Shown: positions 41,519 through 51,639 of the stretch, one piece after another
How the letters are laid out: every line of letters begins with the position of its first letter
Position numbering within the stretch: the first letter of the stretch is position 1
NCBI GenBank assembly: GCA_965203475.1
Contig: OZ241890.1
Location: forward strand, 2,089,423-2,153,422
DNA from: Gammaproteobacteria bacterium
GTDB taxonomy: Bacteria > Pseudomonadota > Gammaproteobacteria > UBA4575
Direction of reading: 5' to 3'
DNA: 64,000 nucleotides
The notes under the pieces: model-generated
What the model was told of the DNA's origin: nothing
What the model saw: the letters and a program-made list of their open reading frames with translations, nothing else
Database searches by the model: none
Translations under genes and position numbers: made by a program

Positions 41519-43327
41519 TTAGAAGGCCCAGACGAATTCCATGGCTAAACGCACAGCTTCTTCGTCTTCTTCTTGACCGGCATAAGCTTCAATCAGTTCT
41601 TCAACCCCATCACCGGGGAAGAACACAGAAGCCTGAGTTTTAACCGTTGTATTTGGAGTTAAACCCCAGTCCAACTGGTTGGACCACTCCCAGCCAATTT
41701 CTTCTTCATCAACTTCTACATAACCAGTCGCAGATACACCACCAACACCAGGCGTAAATCCAGCTACAGATGAGTTACGAGCTACATAAAAGTCTTCGTT
41801 CCATCGCATATAGCGGAGACGTGATTTGAATTTTACATGTGGCTTGAGTTGCATGGTTGCAACCGCAGAAATTTCAGCATAACCGGGATTATCACCACGG
41901 CCAGCACCACCTGAGAAGCCGCCGTCAAAGTTGGCAATACCACCTACTTTAACCGGGGTACCATTACCTAATCCTTCTGGCAAGTGAGAGAATACTGGAA
42001 GACCTAGCATGAAGTTGCCATCCCCTACAAAGGTGTTTTCACCACCCCAGGAGGAGAAGCGTTGGTCACACATGACACAGATGAAGCCTTCCAAGTCATC
42101 ATCGTCACCATCATCATCACCTGAGGTGTAAATACCATCAAGGCGAAGATTGAGCTTGTCGGTAACTTGAAGTGCTGCATAGGCAGAGAATGCATAAGCA
42201 TTAACATCAAACGAATCATCCACTGCTGTTACACCATCAACAAAGTTAACAAGTGTTGCACCATTGTTAATGTCAGCTTCACCAGTATTGTAGTAAGCGC
42301 CTAAATGGGTACTTAAATTGCCCCATGAGGCATTCCAGTAGGCACCAAAGTGATGCACATCAAAGTCTGATTTTTCTACAAAGCCAGAAGCGGCAATATT
42401 GTTATTTAAGAATGCATTTAGATCTGCAACGACTTCGTTCGCAGACTTATCATAGGCATACATCAAACGTAAATTACCATTGCCCAGTGCAAGATCAGCA
42501 AAGCCCATAACTGCTTCACGGTCATCATTGTCTGTAGCGCCACAAGCAAGACCTGCTCCAGCGGTTTGACCTCCGCCAAAGCCACCAAAGTCACCGGCAC
42601 ATTCACCAGCGGCTGCTTGGAATGCATTTTCACCGGGACGGGACAACTTGTTTCGTTCATTGAATACATGGTAGCCAATGTTAAACCACATTTTATCGTT
42701 GGGTTTACCCACTAGCCATAAGGCTGCGGTGTCATCACCAAACATTAAGGCCGCACCACCGACAGTGTCCACATCCACAAATTCAAAACCAGCATGTAAG
42801 CGTAAGGTGTCAGTAAGCAGCATAGAACCATTCAAACGTTCGATACCGAAGTCACTGGTTCCTGCACCTACTTTACCGCCAGAGTCACCTGAAGCTACAT
42901 CCAGCAAGTTGTCATAAGCGGCATGTGCGTGAAAACTGGCTCGACCATCATTGGATAACCAGTTGAAGAACATATTGAACTCATTACGAATATAGTCACC
43001 GCCTAACAAGCCGCCTTCCGCAAAGTGAATACGGCCCCAGTCAGCACCAATGTTATCATCTGGAACTGTACGGGCACCACCTTGATCGACGATCGCCTCT
43101 CTCAGGCCAAAGTCCCAGTCATGCTCATAGGTAGGGATGAAGCGGTTGACCATACCTAAACTAAATTGTCCGGTTGCATTACGTATGACAAAGCTGCCTG
43201 GCCCTAATAAGCCACCACAACAGCCATATCCACCATCTTTCAGAATGTCATATTCTTTTGCGAATACACCACTGGATAGTGAAAGCGCGCAAACAGCCAG
43301 GACAAATCCTAGTAGTTTACTTTTCAT
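41519..43327 (-). CDS. large outer-membrane beta-barrel protein with Gly/Asp-rich acidic loops (putative porin/channel)
   Basis: 602 aa. Signal peptide. Alternating amphipathic strands. C-terminal EFVWAF aromatic terminus. Loops such as GDDDGDDDD and GGFGGGQTAGAG. Confidence 0.6.
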   Translation of the reverse strand: MKSKLLGFVLAVCALSLSSGVFAKEYDILKDGGYGCCGGLLGPGSFVIRNATGQFSLGMVNRFIPTYEHDWDFGLREAIVDQGGARTVPDDNIGADWGRIHFAEGGLLGGDYIRNEFNMFFNWLSNDGRASFHAHAAYDNLLDVASGDSGGKVGAGTSDFGIERLNGSMLLTDTLRLHAGFEFVDVDTVGGAALMFGDDTAALWLVGKPNDKMWFNIGYHVFNERNKLSRPGENAFQAAAGECAGDFGGFGGGQTAGAGLACGATDNDDREAVMGFADLALGNGNLRLMYAYDKSANEVVADLNAFLNNNIAASGFVEKSDFDVHHFGAYWNASWGNLSTHLGAYYNTGEADINNGATLVNFVDGVTAVDDSFDVNAYAFSAYAALQVTDKLNLRLDGIYTSGDDDGDDDDLEGFICVMCDQRFSSWGGENTFVGDGNFMLGLPVFSHLPEGLGNGTPVKVGGIANFDGGFSGGAGRGDNPGYAEISAVATMQLKPHVKFKSRLRYMRWNEDFYVARNSSVAGFTPGVGGVSATGYVEVDEEEIGWEWSNQLDWGLTPNTTVKTQASVFFPGDGVEELIEAYAGQEEDEEAVRLAMEFVWAF

Positions 43328-44478: not shown

Positions 44479-46212
44479 CTAGTTAAATGGCTCGTAATAG
44501 GGGAACGATTTATTCTCTTGAGGATTTGTAGTTTTTTTATGACTTAATTTGCGAATGCTTTCTTTAATGGCTTGATCGTGCGGATATATTTCTAAGGCTT
44601 TGCTGTAAAAATATTTTGCACGTTTTAAATCATTGCTATTTTCGTAATGTTTCCCCCAGCTCACATATCTTGCATGTATATCATCAACACCTTTAATTGC
44701 ATCAGCATTATTTGGATCCATAGATAAAATCGTATGATAGGTTTCGTATGCGTTATCCCCGCTAGGTGAGGTTAATTTTTTATTATCAAATTGTAATTTT
44801 GCTATGTTGAGTAACACTTGAAAATCGTTGGACAAGTTTTCTGACTTTTTTTCAATGACGGTTTCCTCAACTTGCACGTGAGCATCTAGTTCATTTTCTT
44901 TCACTTGATTTTCAATAGCCACATGGGTCTTGGATTCTTCATTTAAATTTGTTTGTACATTTGGCGGGATAATATTTAATGATGTCTGCTCTGTACTATT
45001 GATTGGCTCAAGATCAGTAGCAGATATGTCTTCAGCAGCAATGTCGATACTCAATTTTTGAGATACATTTTTTTCTAAAGAAATTTCTACTGCATGAATC
45101 GATGTAGATTTTTTATTAATCGGAGAAAAATGAACTAAACTAACAAATATAATGAGTCCAGTTGTAAGGGCAATGAATAAAGGTTTTTTGCCAGGAAAGG
45201 TATCAATTTTTTTTACATTAAATTTGGGTATCTCATCACTCACTATTTCAAAAACTGGCTTGTTACTATTGTTTGCTGATTCGGCTAGTGTAGTAATAGT
45301 AGGTATCTTTGTTATTTCAGCTGCTTCATTTTCATTTATAGTCTCTTTTTCGGCGATGATTTCAGATTCATTTTCTGTATCATCTTCATAGGCTAAGGGA
45401 GGGTAAGCGTGTTTTAAATCTATTTCATATTTTATAGAGTGTTGCTCTAACAAGTCTAAGATGTGGCAAGCATTTTCTTCCGTAAACTCCTCTAACTGTT
45501 CAGTGGCAGCAACGAATGAACACCATTCTAATAAAACATCTAATTTATTTAAGTCGTTTCCAATAAAATCAATTATTATCCCTAGTGATTCCTCATCAAA
45601 TGTAATACGTTTAATATTAGATTCAATTTGATAACTTTTATTTGCAATAAATTCTAAAATTGTATCTTCAGTTAGTTTATCAATAGAAATAGTTACGAGC
45701 TCATTTTCTAAAAACGTTACACTTGATATTAATTCATCTTTAAATTCAGTAGATCCCGTTAAAATTAATTTAATATCACTATTGTTATCTACTAATTCTT
45801 TTGAAGCACTAACAATTGTATTGAGCTGCTGAATTTTTAACGCGTCTGCATTGTCAAGTAAAACAGTTATTTTTTCGTTAAGACTTGCGGAGCCTTTTAT
45901 GTGGTCTATGATGTAATTTATATCTAGCGAACTGTTTTGTTTATTTTTATGTGTCGATAATTTTCTATTAGTAGAATGATTTAAAGATAGTTTATTACAC
46001 CGCATAAAAATTAAACGTGAATTTGCAGCGATCTCTACCCCGATATTTTTTACTAGTCTATTTTTATAATCACAATGTTCACTTGTAATCAAAATAAACT
46101 TTGAATCATCCGAAATTATTTTATAAATGGTATCGAGCACCTTGCGGTTGTAACTATCTGGTGACAGGGAAGAGTCATGCTCTTTTGCAAGGCTGAAGGC
46201 GCTGGCACTCAT
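44479..46212 (-). CDS. ExeA/GspA-like protein with degenerate P-loop, one TM segment and periplasmic TPR repeats
   Basis: 577 aa. N-terminal region follows the AAA_22/ExeA pattern, but the Walker A is replaced (FILITSEHCDYKNRL). TM at about residues 340-360. TPR-like C-terminus (AYETYHTILSMDPNNADA...RAKYFYSKALEIYPHD). Confidence 0.5.
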   Translation of the reverse strand: MSASAFSLAKEHDSSLSPDSYNRKVLDTIYKIISDDSKFILITSEHCDYKNRLVKNIGVEIAANSRLIFMRCNKLSLNHSTNRKLSTHKNKQNSSLDINYIIDHIKGSASLNEKITVLLDNADALKIQQLNTIVSASKELVDNNSDIKLILTGSTEFKDELISSVTFLENELVTISIDKLTEDTILEFIANKSYQIESNIKRITFDEESLGIIIDFIGNDLNKLDVLLEWCSFVAATEQLEEFTEENACHILDLLEQHSIKYEIDLKHAYPPLAYEDDTENESEIIAEKETINENEAAEITKIPTITTLAESANNSNKPVFEIVSDEIPKFNVKKIDTFPGKKPLFIALTTGLIIFVSLVHFSPINKKSTSIHAVEISLEKNVSQKLSIDIAAEDISATDLEPINSTEQTSLNIIPPNVQTNLNEESKTHVAIENQVKENELDAHVQVEETVIEKKSENLSNDFQVLLNIAKLQFDNKKLTSPSGDNAYETYHTILSMDPNNADAIKGVDDIHARYVSWGKHYENSNDLKRAKYFYSKALEIYPHDQAIKESIRKLSHKKTTNPQENKSFPYYEPFN

Positions 46213-48668: not shown

Positions 48669-49169
48669 ATGAATTTTCGTTTTCTAAATTTCATTACAAT
48701 TTCATTTTTAATTTTTATTCCGTTTACAGTTTCTGCAATCTCTGTTGGCGATAATGTTCCTTCGTTTAAAGCGCGCACCATTGATGGAAGTAAAAATGTT
48801 GCACTAGAAGATTATCGAGGCAAAGTTGTGTTAGTCGATTTTTGGGCATCGTGGTGTCCACCCTGTCTTAAATCGTTACCAAAATATAATGAGCTTCGTC
48901 GTCAAATTGGCACAGCAAATTTTGAAATAGTTGCGATTAATGTTGATGAAAATACGGAAGATGCAAAAAAGTTTTTAGAAAAACATCCTGTAAGTTACCC
49001 CATTGCTAAAGATCCTAAAGGAGTGTTGCCTGGAGTATTTGGTGTGAAGGCAATGCCAACTTCTTATCTGGTGGATAAAAATGGGGTTGTTCAATATGTG
49101 CATGCTGCATTTAAGGAAGGCGATATTGAAAAACTAAGAATCAAAATCGAACAGTTAATCGCTCAATAA
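48669..49169 (+). CDS. periplasmic TlpA/ResA-like thiol:disulfide oxidoreductase
   Basis: 166 aa. Signal peptide. Thioredoxin fold with FWASWCPPC. Confidence 0.8.
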   Translation: MNFRFLNFITISFLIFIPFTVSAISVGDNVPSFKARTIDGSKNVALEDYRGKVVLVDFWASWCPPCLKSLPKYNELRRQIGTANFEIVAINVDENTEDAKKFLEKHPVSYPIAKDPKGVLPGVFGVKAMPTSYLVDKNGVVQYVHAAFKEGDIEKLRIKIEQLIAQ

Positions 49170-49176
49170 ATTTTCC

Positions 49177-49407
49177 ATGCAAAATTTATTTCAAAAGTTA
49201 ACCATCCTAGGTATTACGGCTCTAGTTGTACTGACATTTTCTGCTTGCACCACGGTTAAACCATGGGAGCGTGGAATTCTTGCCAAAAAAGAAATGGCAT
49301 GGGAACCAGATGCTCTTGCCGGGCAACTTCAAGAACATGTGTATTTTAGTAAAGAAGGGTCCTCTGGCGGCTATGGAGCTGGTGGTGGCGGTTGTGGTTG
49401 TAACTAG
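49177..49407 (+). CDS. DUF4266-like small lipoprotein
   Basis: 76 aa. Lipobox FSACTT. TVKPWERGILAK motif. Gly-rich Cys tail GGGGCGCN. Confidence 0.6.
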   Translation: MQNLFQKLTILGITALVVLTFSACTTVKPWERGILAKKEMAWEPDALAGQLQEHVYFSKEGSSGGYGAGGGGCGCN

Positions 49408-49430
49408 GTAAAAAAATTCAAAAAATTTAA

Positions 49431-50642
49431 ATGAAAAATAAATCAAGCGGAATTAGCCCGACATTAGCAGCTTTAACCTCAGCAGCGATGACACTCCCTG
49501 GTATTAGTTCAAGTGTAAAAGCGGCGGTGGCAGAAAATCAGCCTTCACTTTCATTTCAATACACACGTTATGACGAAGATTCCATTCCAAGTGGTGATGC
49601 CGACCCAAATGTTGGTGATCGTGGCCGCTATGAAATTGATGTCGCACAAATAGAATTTTTGTATCCACTGAATGAGAAATGGCAGCTTAATGGTGGATTT
49701 ACCTATGACGATATGAGTGGTTCTTCACCTTGGTATGTACGTCCTACAGATACAATTAATGCGACAGGAGATCCACTGGTGGTAATGAGTGGTGCTACTA
49801 TTGATGACACACGTTATGATTTTTCTTTTGGCGCCGAATATTTTGGAGACAATTACACGGTTGCACCTTCCGTAGGATTTTCAACGGAAGAGGATTATGA
49901 AGCCATTAGTGGGAGCCTTGAAGTTGAATATGAATTTCCGAATAAAGCGACTTCGGTAAGAGGCGGTATTGCAGTTTCCTTTGACGAAATTGATCCTACT
50001 CAGGAAGAAGGCACGATACGCGTCGACAACGAAGATAAAGAGAATTACTCCATCTTTGGTGGGGTTACTCAAGTCATTAATAAATATACTGTGTTGCAAG
50101 CGACACTTGGCGTTTCTTATTTTGATGGCTTTTTATCAGATCCTTATAAACAAGCCTGGGTCGCGGGTGCCGTGCTACCAGACAGTCGACCCGACGAGCG
50201 AACGCAATATACTTTTTCTACACGATTACGCCGGTATTCCGAATTACTTGAAGCCGCATTTCATGTTGATTATCGATTTTTTTATGATGATTGGGATGTA
50301 CGCTCGCATACATTAGACTTAGGCTTATACAAACAGACTCTTACAGGATGGGGATTTGATGCCTCCATCCGATATTATTCACAAACTCAAGCTGATTTTT
50401 ATGAGCCGTTTTATCGCACAGTACGCAGCGATGGTGAGTATTCTAGTGATTATCGGCTTTCACCCTATGGTTCCATCGCTTTTCGATTAGGAATTTCTGA
50501 AACCATCGGGAATTGGACAATTAGAACCTCGGCTGAACGTTATATCAGTGATAAATCTTATTCCATACAAACAGTTGATGTTGAGAATCCATCATTACTA
50601 GATTACACATTGTTTAGTTTTGGCATTGATTATAAATTTTAA
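49431..50642 (+). CDS. DUF3570-like outer-membrane beta-barrel, candidate flavinylation substrate
   Basis: 403 aa. Signal peptide. C-terminal FGIDYKF aromatic end. Internal S-G-A-T (aa 120-123, nt 49788..49799) matching the ApbE [S/T]GA[T/S] site. Confidence 0.6.
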   Translation: MKNKSSGISPTLAALTSAAMTLPGISSSVKAAVAENQPSLSFQYTRYDEDSIPSGDADPNVGDRGRYEIDVAQIEFLYPLNEKWQLNGGFTYDDMSGSSPWYVRPTDTINATGDPLVVMSGATIDDTRYDFSFGAEYFGDNYTVAPSVGFSTEEDYEAISGSLEVEYEFPNKATSVRGGIAVSFDEIDPTQEEGTIRVDNEDKENYSIFGGVTQVINKYTVLQATLGVSYFDGFLSDPYKQAWVAGAVLPDSRPDERTQYTFSTRLRRYSELLEAAFHVDYRFFYDDWDVRSHTLDLGLYKQTLTGWGFDASIRYYSQTQADFYEPFYRTVRSDGEYSSDYRLSPYGSIAFRLGISETIGNWTIRTSAERYISDKSYSIQTVDVENPSLLDYTLFSFGIDYKF

Positions 50643-50730
50643 TTTGTAGTCTAGTTGCGGTTCACTTTATTACTTCCATGTAACCGTGTTTTAAATTTAG
50701 TACACTGTTTTCTTTTTATATATTCCAATT

Positions 50731-51639
50731 TTGGAACTGCATACCTTTCCCTTCAAAGCAATGGGCTCGCCATGCGAGTTCCGCCTTTATGCAGAAGAAA
50801 AAAAATTTGCGAGTCATGTCGCTGATCGGGCGATTGCAGAGTTACAACGCCTAGAAAAAAAATATTCGCGTTATCGTGATGACAGTGTTACCACGAAAAT
50901 TAATCAATACGCGGGTGATAAAAATGGAATTGAACTAGATGAAGAAACATCACTTCTATTAAATTATGCCCAAGTAGGGTTTGAGCAAAGTGATGGCTTG
51001 TTCGATATTAGTTCTGGAATTTTACGGAAAGCGTGGAATTTTCGATCGAACCAATTACCTTCTCAGGAAGAAATTGACAAACTTTTACCCTTAATTGGTT
51101 GGGATAAGCTTAGTTGGAATAAGCCAATTTTGTGTTTGCCGCAAAAAGGCATGGAAGTAGATTTTGGTGGTTACGTAAAAGAATATGCGGCTGATGTAGC
51201 AGTAAATGTGTGCCGTCAAGAAGGGATTCAACATGGATTGGTTAATTTGGGGGGTGATATTTGCATTGTTGGCCCACATCCAAATGGTAATGCATGGAAA
51301 ATTGGTGTTCGACATCCGCGCAACCCCGAAATTCCTATGTCTTTTGTATTTTTAGAGCAAGGAGGACTGGCGAGTAGCGGCGACTATGAACGTTTTATGA
51401 TGGTTGGTGGAAAACGCTATGCCCATATATTGAATCCAAAAACTGGTTGGCCGGTGCAAAGCCTGGCATGTACAAGTGTGTATGCTGATCAGTGTGTCGT
51501 TGCTGGGACTTCTTCTACAATTGCGATGTTAAAAGGTGAACAGGATGGTATTAAATGGTTGGATGAGTTGGGCTTACCTTATATAGGTATGAATCAGAAC
51601 TTAGAAATTTTTGGTACATTAAAATTTGTGGAAGAGTAA
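50731..51639 (+). CDS. apbE: ApbE-family FAD:protein FMN transferase (no signal peptide or lipobox in this reading frame)
   Basis: 302 aa. ApbE core (KAMGSPCEF, GGYVKEYA, GGDICIVG). Start is TTG at 50731 or ATG at 50761. An in-frame stop at 50698 precludes an N-terminal extension. Confidence 0.75.
   Translation: MELHTFPFKAMGSPCEFRLYAEEKKFASHVADRAIAELQRLEKKYSRYRDDSVTTKINQYAGDKNGIELDEETSLLLNYAQVGFEQSDGLFDISSGILRKAWNFRSNQLPSQEEIDKLLPLIGWDKLSWNKPILCLPQKGMEVDFGGYVKEYAADVAVNVCRQEGIQHGLVNLGGDICIVGPHPNGNAWKIGVRHPRNPEIPMSFVFLEQGGLASSGDYERFMMVGGKRYAHILNPKTGWPVQSLACTSVYADQCVVAGTSSTIAMLKGEQDGIKWLDELGLPYIGMNQNLEIFGTLKFVEE

Follow-up and report, generated by a model that had tools for sequence, protein, structure and literature searches.

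We studied a cluster of four genes in a 64-kb window (the whole stretch of DNA analysed), where a gene for an ApbE-family FAD:protein FMN transferase lies downstream of a gene for a DUF3570 protein. The question raised by this locus is whether DUF3570 is flavinylated by its neighbour and, if so, at which residues, in which compartment and as part of which electron path. The first-pass annotation had proposed that ApbE flavinylates DUF3570 at an SGAT tetrapeptide within a thioredoxin/DUF4266 module, and had held that no biochemistry was established for such modules. The latter was wrong: DUF3570 flavinylation had already been shown experimentally (PMC8238504), the DUF3570 of Chlorobium (C. luteolum) being flavinylated by its cognate ApbE at two [S/T]GA[S/T] sites (Méheust et al. 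2021, eLife 10:e66878, PMC8238504). The modification was seen as UV fluorescence on SDS-PAGE after co-expression, and the signal was lost only when both motif serines were mutated; flavinylation was obtained by cytoplasmic co-expression and DUF3570 was recovered in the insoluble pellet (PMC8238504). The same study counted 543 loci with DUF3570 clusters, 227 with DsbD and 316 without, and in its model the electrons come from DsbD (PMC8238504).

Judged by its sequence, the cluster in the window is an ordinary ortholog of this published DUF3570 "DsbD system", of the subtype in which dsbD is not adjacent. Its four Pfam families and their order are those of the published clusters, as are the two site positions in DUF3570 and the C-terminal CXC in DUF4266, and it falls with the 316 clusters without a colocalised DsbD. 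It differs in site 1, which is SGSS in the window and [S/T]GA[S/T] in the published system, and in the thioredoxin-like protein, which belongs to PF00578/PF08534 (TlpA-like) here whereas PF13899 was named there. The flavinylation hypothesis is correct but already published: modification of DUF3570 by ApbE stands, having been shown for a homolog (PMC8238504), but the number of sites is two, the acceptor at SGAT varies between Thr and Ser among homologs, and ApbE lacks an export signal (see below).

Organization of the cluster and its surroundings

The four ORFs were located in the positive strand between positions 48669 and 51639, in the order thioredoxin-fold protein (Trx), DUF4266, DUF3570 and ApbE, with intergenic gaps of 7, 23 and 88 nt (Table 1). 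ORFs and Pfam families were all found where the first-pass annotation had placed them, and its remark that nqr and rnf genes are not beside the cluster also held, none being present among the neighbours or the annotated large ORFs of the window. A tblastn search of the 64-kb window with a cluster-linked DsbD found no DsbD (best E = 3.8). Promoter and terminator scans gave fewer sites than in shuffled sequence, the 88-nt gap before apbE showed no significant structure (z = -0.6), and the window gave no match in Rfam or tRNA scans. Pyruvate dehydrogenase genes adjoin the cluster, and the host is apparently a marine, aerobic gammaproteobacterium.

Table 1 Positions of the four genes and of the two putative flavinylation sites in the window
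Feature	Position	Strand	Description
TlpA/ResA-like thioredoxin-fold protein	48669..49169	+	166 aa; Pfam AhpC-TSA/Redoxin
DUF4266 small lipoprotein	49177..49407	+	76 aa; Pfam PF14086, E=5e-23
DUF3570	49431..50642	+	403 aa; Pfam PF12094, E=8e-64
Flavinylation site 1 in DUF3570	49716..49727	+	aa 96-99, SGSS; predicted acceptor Ser99
Flavinylation site 2 in DUF3570	49788..49799	+	aa 120-123, SGAT; predicted acceptor Thr123
ApbE-family FAD:protein FMN transferase	50731..51639	+	302 aa, TTG start; Pfam PF02424, E=4e-73

Conservation of gene linkage

A metagenome scan with an alignment query yielded 86 related loci, and a single-protein scan of genome contigs yielded three close relatives and one weak match. 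Co-occurrence of the four genes, which the first-pass annotation had expected, was borne out: a Trx homolog was upstream of DUF3570 in 63 of 63 testable loci, DUF4266 adjoined DUF3570 in 74 of 78, and ApbE was downstream on the same strand in 58 of 63 (adjacent in 56), the order being always Trx-DUF4266-DUF3570-ApbE. DsbD was present in 24 of the 86 loci. Flanking genes were the same as in the window in close relatives and different in distant ones; the four genes thus behave as one module.

Putative flavinylation sites in DUF3570

The SGAT reported for the barrel was found at its expected place (site 2, Table 1), and the estimate of about 1% for its occurrence by chance was about right: [ST]GA[ST] was counted three times in the 19,541 residues of the window ORFs of at least 150 aa, and the single SGAT was that of DUF3570. 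Site conservation was scored on 137 diverse DUF3570 representatives, clustered at 50% identity. The context of site 2 is V-M-S-G-A-T-I-D-D, without an acidic residue at -6. Its block was [ST]GA[ST] in 109 of the 137 representatives and the acceptor was Ser or Thr in 133, which agrees with the predicted conservation of SGAT but not with an invariant Thr (Ser in 70, Thr in 63).

SGAT is conserved but is not the only site, a second conserved one at aa 96-99 (site 1) having been overlooked. Its context, D93-D-M-S-G-S-S-P-W, departs from the canonical [D/E]-x-x-S-G-A-S motif in reading SGSS here, against SGAS in most homologs. Among the representatives the block was [ST]GA[ST] in 118/137 and SGS[ST] in 11/137, the acceptor was Ser or Thr in 132/137 and the residue at -6 was acidic in 136/137; the window protein keeps the acceptor Ser, the Gly, the Pro-Trp and the acidic residue. 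SGSS was uniform in the clade of the window (62 of 117 close homologs).

Predicted fold and export of DUF3570

DUF3570 matched PF12094 with 216 bits (cut-off 25) over residues 13-374. This was its sole Pfam match at E<=0.01, the FMN_bind domain (PF04205) being absent. It contains no cysteine, and no CxxCH was found in the four cluster proteins or their homologs; a haem-based mechanism was rejected on the latter ground. The leader reads MKNK...VKA up to its junction with AV (hydrophobicity KD 1.45), and the C-terminus is ...FGIDYKF, whose terminal Phe occupies the aromatic position of the beta-signal. Export through Tat was rejected, an RRxFL-like motif being present in 1 of 251 homologs.

The AlphaFold model was confident (pLDDT 87) and showed an 18-strand barrel with turns of 2-5 aa on its short-turn face. 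All the best fold matches in a structural search were outer-membrane barrels, though generic ones of 7-14% identity, with no specific structural relative among them. Signal peptide, strands and terminal Phe predict that DUF3570 is an outer-membrane-type beta-barrel and likely a BAM substrate. Site 1 lies in the L2 turn joining strands 3 and 4, and site 2 in the L3 turn joining strands 5 and 6; of the 45 most conserved residues, 44 are on the long-loop face, as are both sites, sidedness being read from strand parity in the predicted model. We found no mention of the barrel fold, or of a surface-face location of the flavin sites, in the searchable literature.

The thioredoxin-fold protein and DUF4266

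Trx matched AhpC-TSA (E=3e-27) and Redoxin (E=9e-26) in Pfam, and ResA/DsbE/TlpA-like models in NCBIfam, all under the equivalog cut-offs. Its leader is MNFRFLNFITISFLIFIPFTVSA (hydrophobicity KD 2.87) and its active site is WCPPC (Cys63/Cys66, nt 48855-48866). The Trx homologs upstream of DUF3570 carry a WASWCxPC motif, most of them with WCGPC or WCPPC, which are motifs of the reducing thioredoxin type. DUF4266 presented the lipobox FSAC (Cys24) with Thr at +2 and a Gly-rich tail ending in C73-G-C75-N (nt 49393-49404). In its homologs the lipobox Cys precedes (K/Q)PWER by four residues, the +2 residue is A, T or S and never D, and the tail GCGCN was found in 78 of 81 loci.

A leaderless ApbE

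The best solved relatives of ApbE were TM1553 of T. maritima (1vrm, 5e-40) and FmnB of Listeria (7esa, 9e-37), and its core SGDYER...H-ILDP-TG-P was conserved in the alignments to both. The Pfam domain begins at residue 11; neither a signal peptide nor a lipobox was found on the protein (leader hydrophobicity KD 0.49), and the frame is closed upstream by a TAG at 50698-50700, 31-33 nt before the start. All DUF3570-linked ApbEs with a readable N-terminus share the leaderless pattern M-x-x-x-x-F-x-F-[KR]-A-M-G-[SCG]-P-C, which we did not find mentioned for DUF3570 clusters in the searchable literature. Classical periplasmic ApbE typically, although not universally, has an N-terminal lipoprotein signal or signal peptide. 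The lack of a leader throughout the family is puzzling in terms of topology. A linear motif of as few as seven residues suffices for recognition by ApbE, and truncated ApbE is active in the cytoplasm.

Proposed mechanism and alternatives

We consider it probable that the cluster is a DUF3570 flavinylation ortholog in which a thiol relay leads to the flavins and FMN is loaded before export. Our data show the family memberships, the conserved sites, the gene linkage, the predicted barrel and the leaderless ApbE; what we infer is the path and direction of the electrons, which face bears the flavins, when flavinylation happens and what the module does physiologically. ApbE, using FAD, would link FMN to Thr123 of DUF3570 through a phosphoester, and Ser99 of site 1 (SGSS) is probably modified too, the two flavins being the putative sole redox centres of the cysteine-free barrel. 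Trx (WCPPC) and the lipoprotein DUF4266 (CGC) would form a thiol-disulfide relay, most likely delivering reducing equivalents to the flavins. A DsbD/CcdA-type membrane protein, whose gene would lie elsewhere, would ultimately supply the electrons, and the flavins would hand them to an acceptor in the envelope or at the cell surface. Since three of the four proteins carry export signals and ApbE does not, DUF3570 most likely receives its FMN in the cytoplasm, as an unfolded precursor, and only then passes through Sec and is inserted by BAM. The short linear motif, the cytoplasmic activity of truncated ApbE and the cytoplasmic co-expression all fit a precursor that is still unfolded when it is modified, although we know of no protein that shows export of an FMN-bearing chain through SecYEG.

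Flavinylation of site 2 alone in the clade of the window, site 1 being kept structurally, is a tentative and rather unlikely variant. No residue of the ApbE motif is better conserved than Ala, whose change to Val about halved flavinylation in another substrate; site 1, where Ser replaces this Ala throughout the clade, may therefore be poorly or not modified here. Ala to Ser is, however, milder than Ala to Val; the 11 SGS[ST] representatives are mutually 31-52% identical, except for the pair P0001/P0045 (73%), and the nearest neighbours of some of them have SGAS. Furthermore, the acceptor hydroxyl, Gly97, Pro100 and the acidic -6 residue are all still conserved, which suggests that site 1 stays functional. 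That the leaderless ApbE serves a cytoplasmic substrate, with DUF3570 modified by another periplasmic ApbE (e.g., that of NQR) or unmodified and adjacency reflecting co-regulation only, appears very unlikely. The missing signal peptide would fit it, as would the cytoplasmic ApbEs of Klebsiella with cytoplasmic substrates; but ApbE was adjacent on the same strand in 56 of 63 loci, the stop and start codons of the DUF3570 gene and apbE often overlap or abut, DUF3570 of C. luteolum was flavinylated by the ApbE of its own cluster, and such apbE genes were spotted as "orphans" in a genome without another substrate (PMC8238504). The least credible alternative, which we regard as extremely improbable, is that DUF3570 is a soluble periplasmic protein and the barrel a prediction artefact, even though Méheust et al. 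2021 (PMC8238504) treat it as a secreted substrate and never mention a barrel.

The direction of electron flow might also be the opposite: the DUF3570 flavins would take thiol electrons through the DUF4266 CGC and Trx and pass them to O2 or another oxidant, a split flavin sulfhydryl oxidase in the envelope, comparable with Erv/Ero1. CGC peptides have a relatively oxidising potential, near that of PDI, and the CXC motif of DUF4266 is invariant; DsbD was absent from the window and present in only 24 of the 86 loci, and an aerobic host with adjoining pyruvate dehydrogenase genes would suit an oxidase. We still judge this direction unlikely: where a linked membrane partner exists it is DsbD, a reductant, WCGPC and WCPPC are typical of reducing thioredoxins and TlpA-like proteins, and in the published model electrons arrive from DsbD (PMC8238504). 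A further reading, doubtful at present, extends the reducing relay into a conduit without haem that would take electrons across the outer membrane. Both covalent flavins and nearly all conserved DUF3570 residues would be on the cell-surface face, and DUF4266 would sit in the outer membrane, its Gly-rich CGC tail running through the DUF3570 lumen so that electrons from thiols pass from the periplasmic thioredoxin to the flavins; the leaderless ApbE would load the flavins in the cytoplasm and the unfolded chain would carry them through Sec.

Comparison with other redox systems

The FMN predicted for DUF3570 resembles that of NqrC, NqrB, RnfG, RnfD and other FMN_bind substrates, in which ApbE, with FAD as donor, joins FMN as a phosphoester to the final Ser/Thr of a D-x-x-[S/T]-G-A-[S/T]-type motif. 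Unlike those substrates, DUF3570 lacks PF04205, is a predicted all-beta barrel and has two sites at a spacing of 24 residues; nqr and rnf genes are absent from the cluster, and its ApbE is leaderless whereas the classical one is a periplasmic lipoprotein. The cytoplasmic ApbE of Klebsiella pneumoniae likewise has no signal peptide, but its substrate, a soluble fumarate reductase, is cytoplasmic, whereas DUF3570 bears a signal for export and is predicted to fold as an outer-membrane protein. In the DsbD - TlpA/CcmG/ResA reducing pathways there is likewise a secreted TlpA-like CxxC protein, and DsbD is adjacent in 24 of the 86 related loci; the clients there are apocytochrome c or a Cu protein, in contrast with a CXC lipoprotein and a putatively flavinylated barrel here. 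The likeness to MtrCAB-type porin-cytochrome conduits is one of concept only, without homology: these contain haems and a 26-strand barrel, whereas the four proteins of the window have neither haems nor CxxCH, the DUF3570 barrel has 18 predicted strands and its cofactor would be on the barrel itself.

Significance

Since the central result is already published, the finding on its own adds a further ortholog, whose host is an uncultured marine gammaproteobacterium. Our additions are the SGSS variant of the second, overlooked site, the conservation of both acceptor positions, the linkage in 86 loci, the predicted barrel and the family-wide leaderless ApbE. The DUF3570 system is of interest because no physiological function was found for it in the searchable literature, despite 543 published clusters. 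DUF3570 would be the first known outer-membrane barrel with a covalent flavin, and the leaderless ApbE poses the specific question of where and when an exported protein gets flavinylated. If the flavins face outward, the module would be a flavin-based counterpart of the porin-cytochrome conduits and may bear on iron acquisition, or on redox chemistry at the cell surface, where seawater is poor in iron.

Gene content and linkage of the cluster

The four genes reported at this place by a first-pass annotation were all recovered as plus-strand ORFs with Pfam assignments, separated in gene order by gaps of 7, 23 and 88 nt. They were flanked by a Cys/Met PLP enzyme, a patatin-like lipase and AceE/AceF. 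The annotated remainder of the window was housekeeping (TopA, NtrYX, TrkAH, iPGM, PhoX), and the cluster was rightly described as not lying beside nqr or rnf, none of which was found among the annotated window genes. The window had no tRNA genes and no Rfam families at the gathering threshold. The 577-aa ORF lay inside a 32% GC patch (rest of the window ~39%) and shared only 27-33% identity over its longest alignments in relatives, the adjoining genes sharing 75-89%; it looks like a fast-evolving protein, possibly surface or secreted.

Features of the cluster and its surroundings (window positions, nt)
Feature	Positions	Strand	Pfam match or remark
Thioredoxin ORF	48669-49169	+	AhpC-TSA 3e-27, Redoxin 9e-26
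DUF4266 ORF	49177-49407	+	5e-23
DUF3570 ORF	49431-50642	+	8e-64
DUF3570 leader	49431-49526		residues 1-32
Site 1 (SGSS)	49716-49727
Site 2 (SGAT)	49788-49799		aa 120-123
Gap and TTG start of apbE	50643-50733
Upstream stop (TAG)	50698-50700
ApbE ORF	50731-51639	+	4e-73
ApbE Cys15	50773-50775
602-aa ORF	41519-43327	-	no Pfam family at E<=1e-5
577-aa ORF	44479-46212	-	no Pfam match

Linkage was examined in 86 DUF3570 loci; each denominator counts those whose flanking sequence was long enough. The window thioredoxin had a homolog upstream of DUF3570 in 63/63 loci, DUF4266 was directly upstream in 74/78, and in 58/63 ApbE followed downstream, in the same orientation (adjacent in 56), so that the co-occurrence expected across genomes was borne out. 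Close relatives share the synteny MetY - four genes - patatin - AceEF with the window; distant relatives had quite different flanks. By gene order, the thioredoxin, DUF4266, DUF3570 and ApbE genes are evidently one module.

The thioredoxin presented a classic hydrophobic leader (hydrophobicity value KD 2.87) and the motif WCPPC (WASWC[G/P/A]PC in homologs), and matched NCBIfam ResA/DsbE/TlpA-like thiol-disulfide oxidoreductases, none reaching the equivalog cut-off. DUF4266 had a lipobox Cys four residues ahead of (K/Q)PWER and a Gly-rich tail with a GCGCN terminus in 78/81 loci. Under the enterobacterial +2 rule, a non-Asp +2 residue directs Lol sorting to the outer membrane; this location is predicted for the DUF4266 lipoprotein because its +2 residue was A, T or S, never Asp.

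Relation to the published family

DUF3570 has been met beside "orphan" apbE genes and carries two conserved [S/T]GA[S/T] motifs (Méheust, Huang, Rivera-Lugo, Banfield, Light, eLife 2021, PMC8238504). Co-expression of Chlorobium luteolum DUF3570 with its cognate ApbE yielded flavinylated DUF3570, the signal being abolished only with both motif serines mutated (PMC8238504). The earlier proposal that ApbE flavinylates DUF3570 in such a module was thus already shown for a homolog, and its statement that no biochemistry was established does not stand. The published cluster comprises ApbE, DUF3570, a thioredoxin-like protein and DUF4266 with a C-terminal CXC; DsbD accompanies it in 227 clusters and is missing from 316. 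Its authors proposed a DsbD-fed hybrid thioredoxin/flavin electron-transfer chain of unknown function, possibly iron-related (PMC8238504). One further paper mentions the DUF4266/DUF3570/TlpA neighbourhood in passing only, and no later work extending the system was found in the searchable literature. The window locus is a further member of this family, whose flavinylation is already demonstrated.

In L005 (4781-7009 and 7114-7716), a DsbD-linked relative, the PF13899 (Thioredoxin_7) match was the C-terminal domain of DsbD itself, and the separate thioredoxin gene was of the AhpC-TSA/Redoxin type, like that of the window. Part of the published "thioredoxin-like PF13899" count may therefore come from DsbD and not from a stand-alone thioredoxin.

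Two putative flavinylation sites

Alignments of 117 close-to-moderate homologs and, separately, of 137 representatives of 50%-identity clusters both showed two conserved blocks in DUF3570. Site 1, [D/E]-x-M-S-G-A-S-P-W (aa 93-101), had [ST]GA[ST] in 118/137 representatives, an acceptor Ser/Thr in 132/137 and, in 136/137, Asp or Glu at position -6. Site 2, V-M-S-G-A-[ST]-I-[DE]-[DE] (aa 118-126), had [ST]GA[ST] in 109/137, without an acidic residue at -6. Both canonical motifs were present in 95/137 and neither in only 5/137. The single SGAT first noticed in the barrel is site 2, which is real and conserved, but site 1 had been overlooked; likewise, the acceptor at site 2 is kept as Ser/Thr but not as an invariant Thr (Ser 70/137, Thr 63/137). 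The chance estimate of ~1% for SGAT was fair against the background: in 19,541 residues (all window ORFs with 150 aa or more, in any frame) SGAT occurred once, in DUF3570 itself, and [ST]GA[ST] had three occurrences, of which two lay elsewhere, in TrkH and in an aminotransferase.

Site 1 of the window is SGSS, the same across its clade. SGS[ST] was found there in 11 representatives with mutual identity of 31-52%, except for one pair (73%), and several had SGAS nearest neighbours, by which it appears to be a recurrent, tolerated variant. ApbE recognises the motif D-x-x-[S/T]-G-A-[S/T]; since in another substrate Ala->Val approximately halved flavinylation (Asp->Ala had little effect), SGSS may be modified poorly or not at all. 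The SGSS variant was not found in the searchable literature.

Predicted fold of DUF3570

The leader of DUF3570 was of the OMP type, with moderate hydrophobicity (KD 1.45), and the protein ended in Phe, as did 185/251 homologs. Its AlphaFold2 model had 18 membrane-length strands with, by strand parity, eight connections of 2-5 residues on the N/C-terminal face and five long loops (13-27 residues) on the opposite face, in the model a canonical OMP arrangement. Both flavin sites were predicted as tight turns (L2, L3) on the long-loop face, which held 44/45 of the most conserved mature positions, with 0 on the short-turn face. Neither a barrel nor an outer-membrane location was described by Méheust et al. 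(PMC8238504), and a predicted outer-membrane barrel with flavin sites on a conserved long-loop face was not found in the searchable literature.

The leader was conserved as 'ALxALTxAAxALPG' among homologs only ~40% identical overall, with A14, L15, A19, L22 and P23 each at least 90% conserved. Sec leaders are not usually so conserved, which hints that this one is specifically recognised, perhaps in connection with the leaderless ApbE (see below).

ApbE without a leader

The window ApbE frame is closed upstream by a TAG, its Pfam domain begins at residue 11 and its N-terminus is hydrophilic. All DUF3570-linked ApbEs with a readable N-terminus begin ~9 residues ahead of a conserved A-M-G-[S/C/G]-P-C, and in low-GC loci stop codons lie directly upstream of the start. 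The Cys of M-G-[S/C/G]-P-C (Cys15 here) was present in 67/70, with an adjoining Cys in 17; we know of no described role for it. The TTG start ('LELFTFPFKAMG') is common to four close relatives (L001, L003, L008, L009), and in distant relatives apbE has an ATG start abutting or overlapping the DUF3570 stop. No significant RNA structure was detected in the gap before apbE (z=-0.6).

ApbEs of the classical kind are lipoproteins of the periplasm; the known leaderless ones serve cytoplasmic substrates. On the simplest reading, FMN would be attached to the unfolded DUF3570 precursor in the cytoplasm, ahead of post-translational Sec export; SecYEG tolerates bulky side-chain adducts, and we know of no demonstrated export of an FMN-bearing chain. 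It agrees with the ability of ApbE to modify short linear motifs and to work in the cytoplasm, and with the published flavinylation, which took place in the E. coli cytoplasm, with an insoluble product (PMC8238504). The missing ApbE leader drew no comment in that paper, and a family-wide leaderless ApbE, as suggested here, was not found in the searchable literature.

Proposed electron path and alternatives

The best-supported mechanism, which we consider probable, is a thiol-to-flavin relay. Electrons would enter from a DsbD/CcdA encoded elsewhere and pass to the TlpA-like thioredoxin, then to the CGC of DUF4266 and on to FMN on DUF3570, and from there to a further acceptor. DsbD was present in 24/86 loci and none is encoded within the 64-kb window (tblastn, best E 3.8). 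A thioredoxin/DUF4266/DUF3570 chain that instead runs oxidatively seems unlikely. With SGSS at site 1, a one-flavin variant in the window's clade is conceivable though doubtful, and would be compatible with the relay.

DUF3570 lacks cysteine, as do 235/251 homologs, and has no haem motif. An outer-membrane conduit that works with flavin and thiol and without haem is a rather improbable extension. It is very unlikely that an enzyme other than the cluster ApbE modifies DUF3570, and there is scarcely any chance that the barrel, modelled at pLDDT 87.3 and pTM 0.83, is a prediction artefact. The remaining interest of the family lies in a predicted outer-membrane barrel whose conserved long-loop face bears the flavin sites, an apparently family-wide leaderless ApbE and the SGSS variant of site 1.
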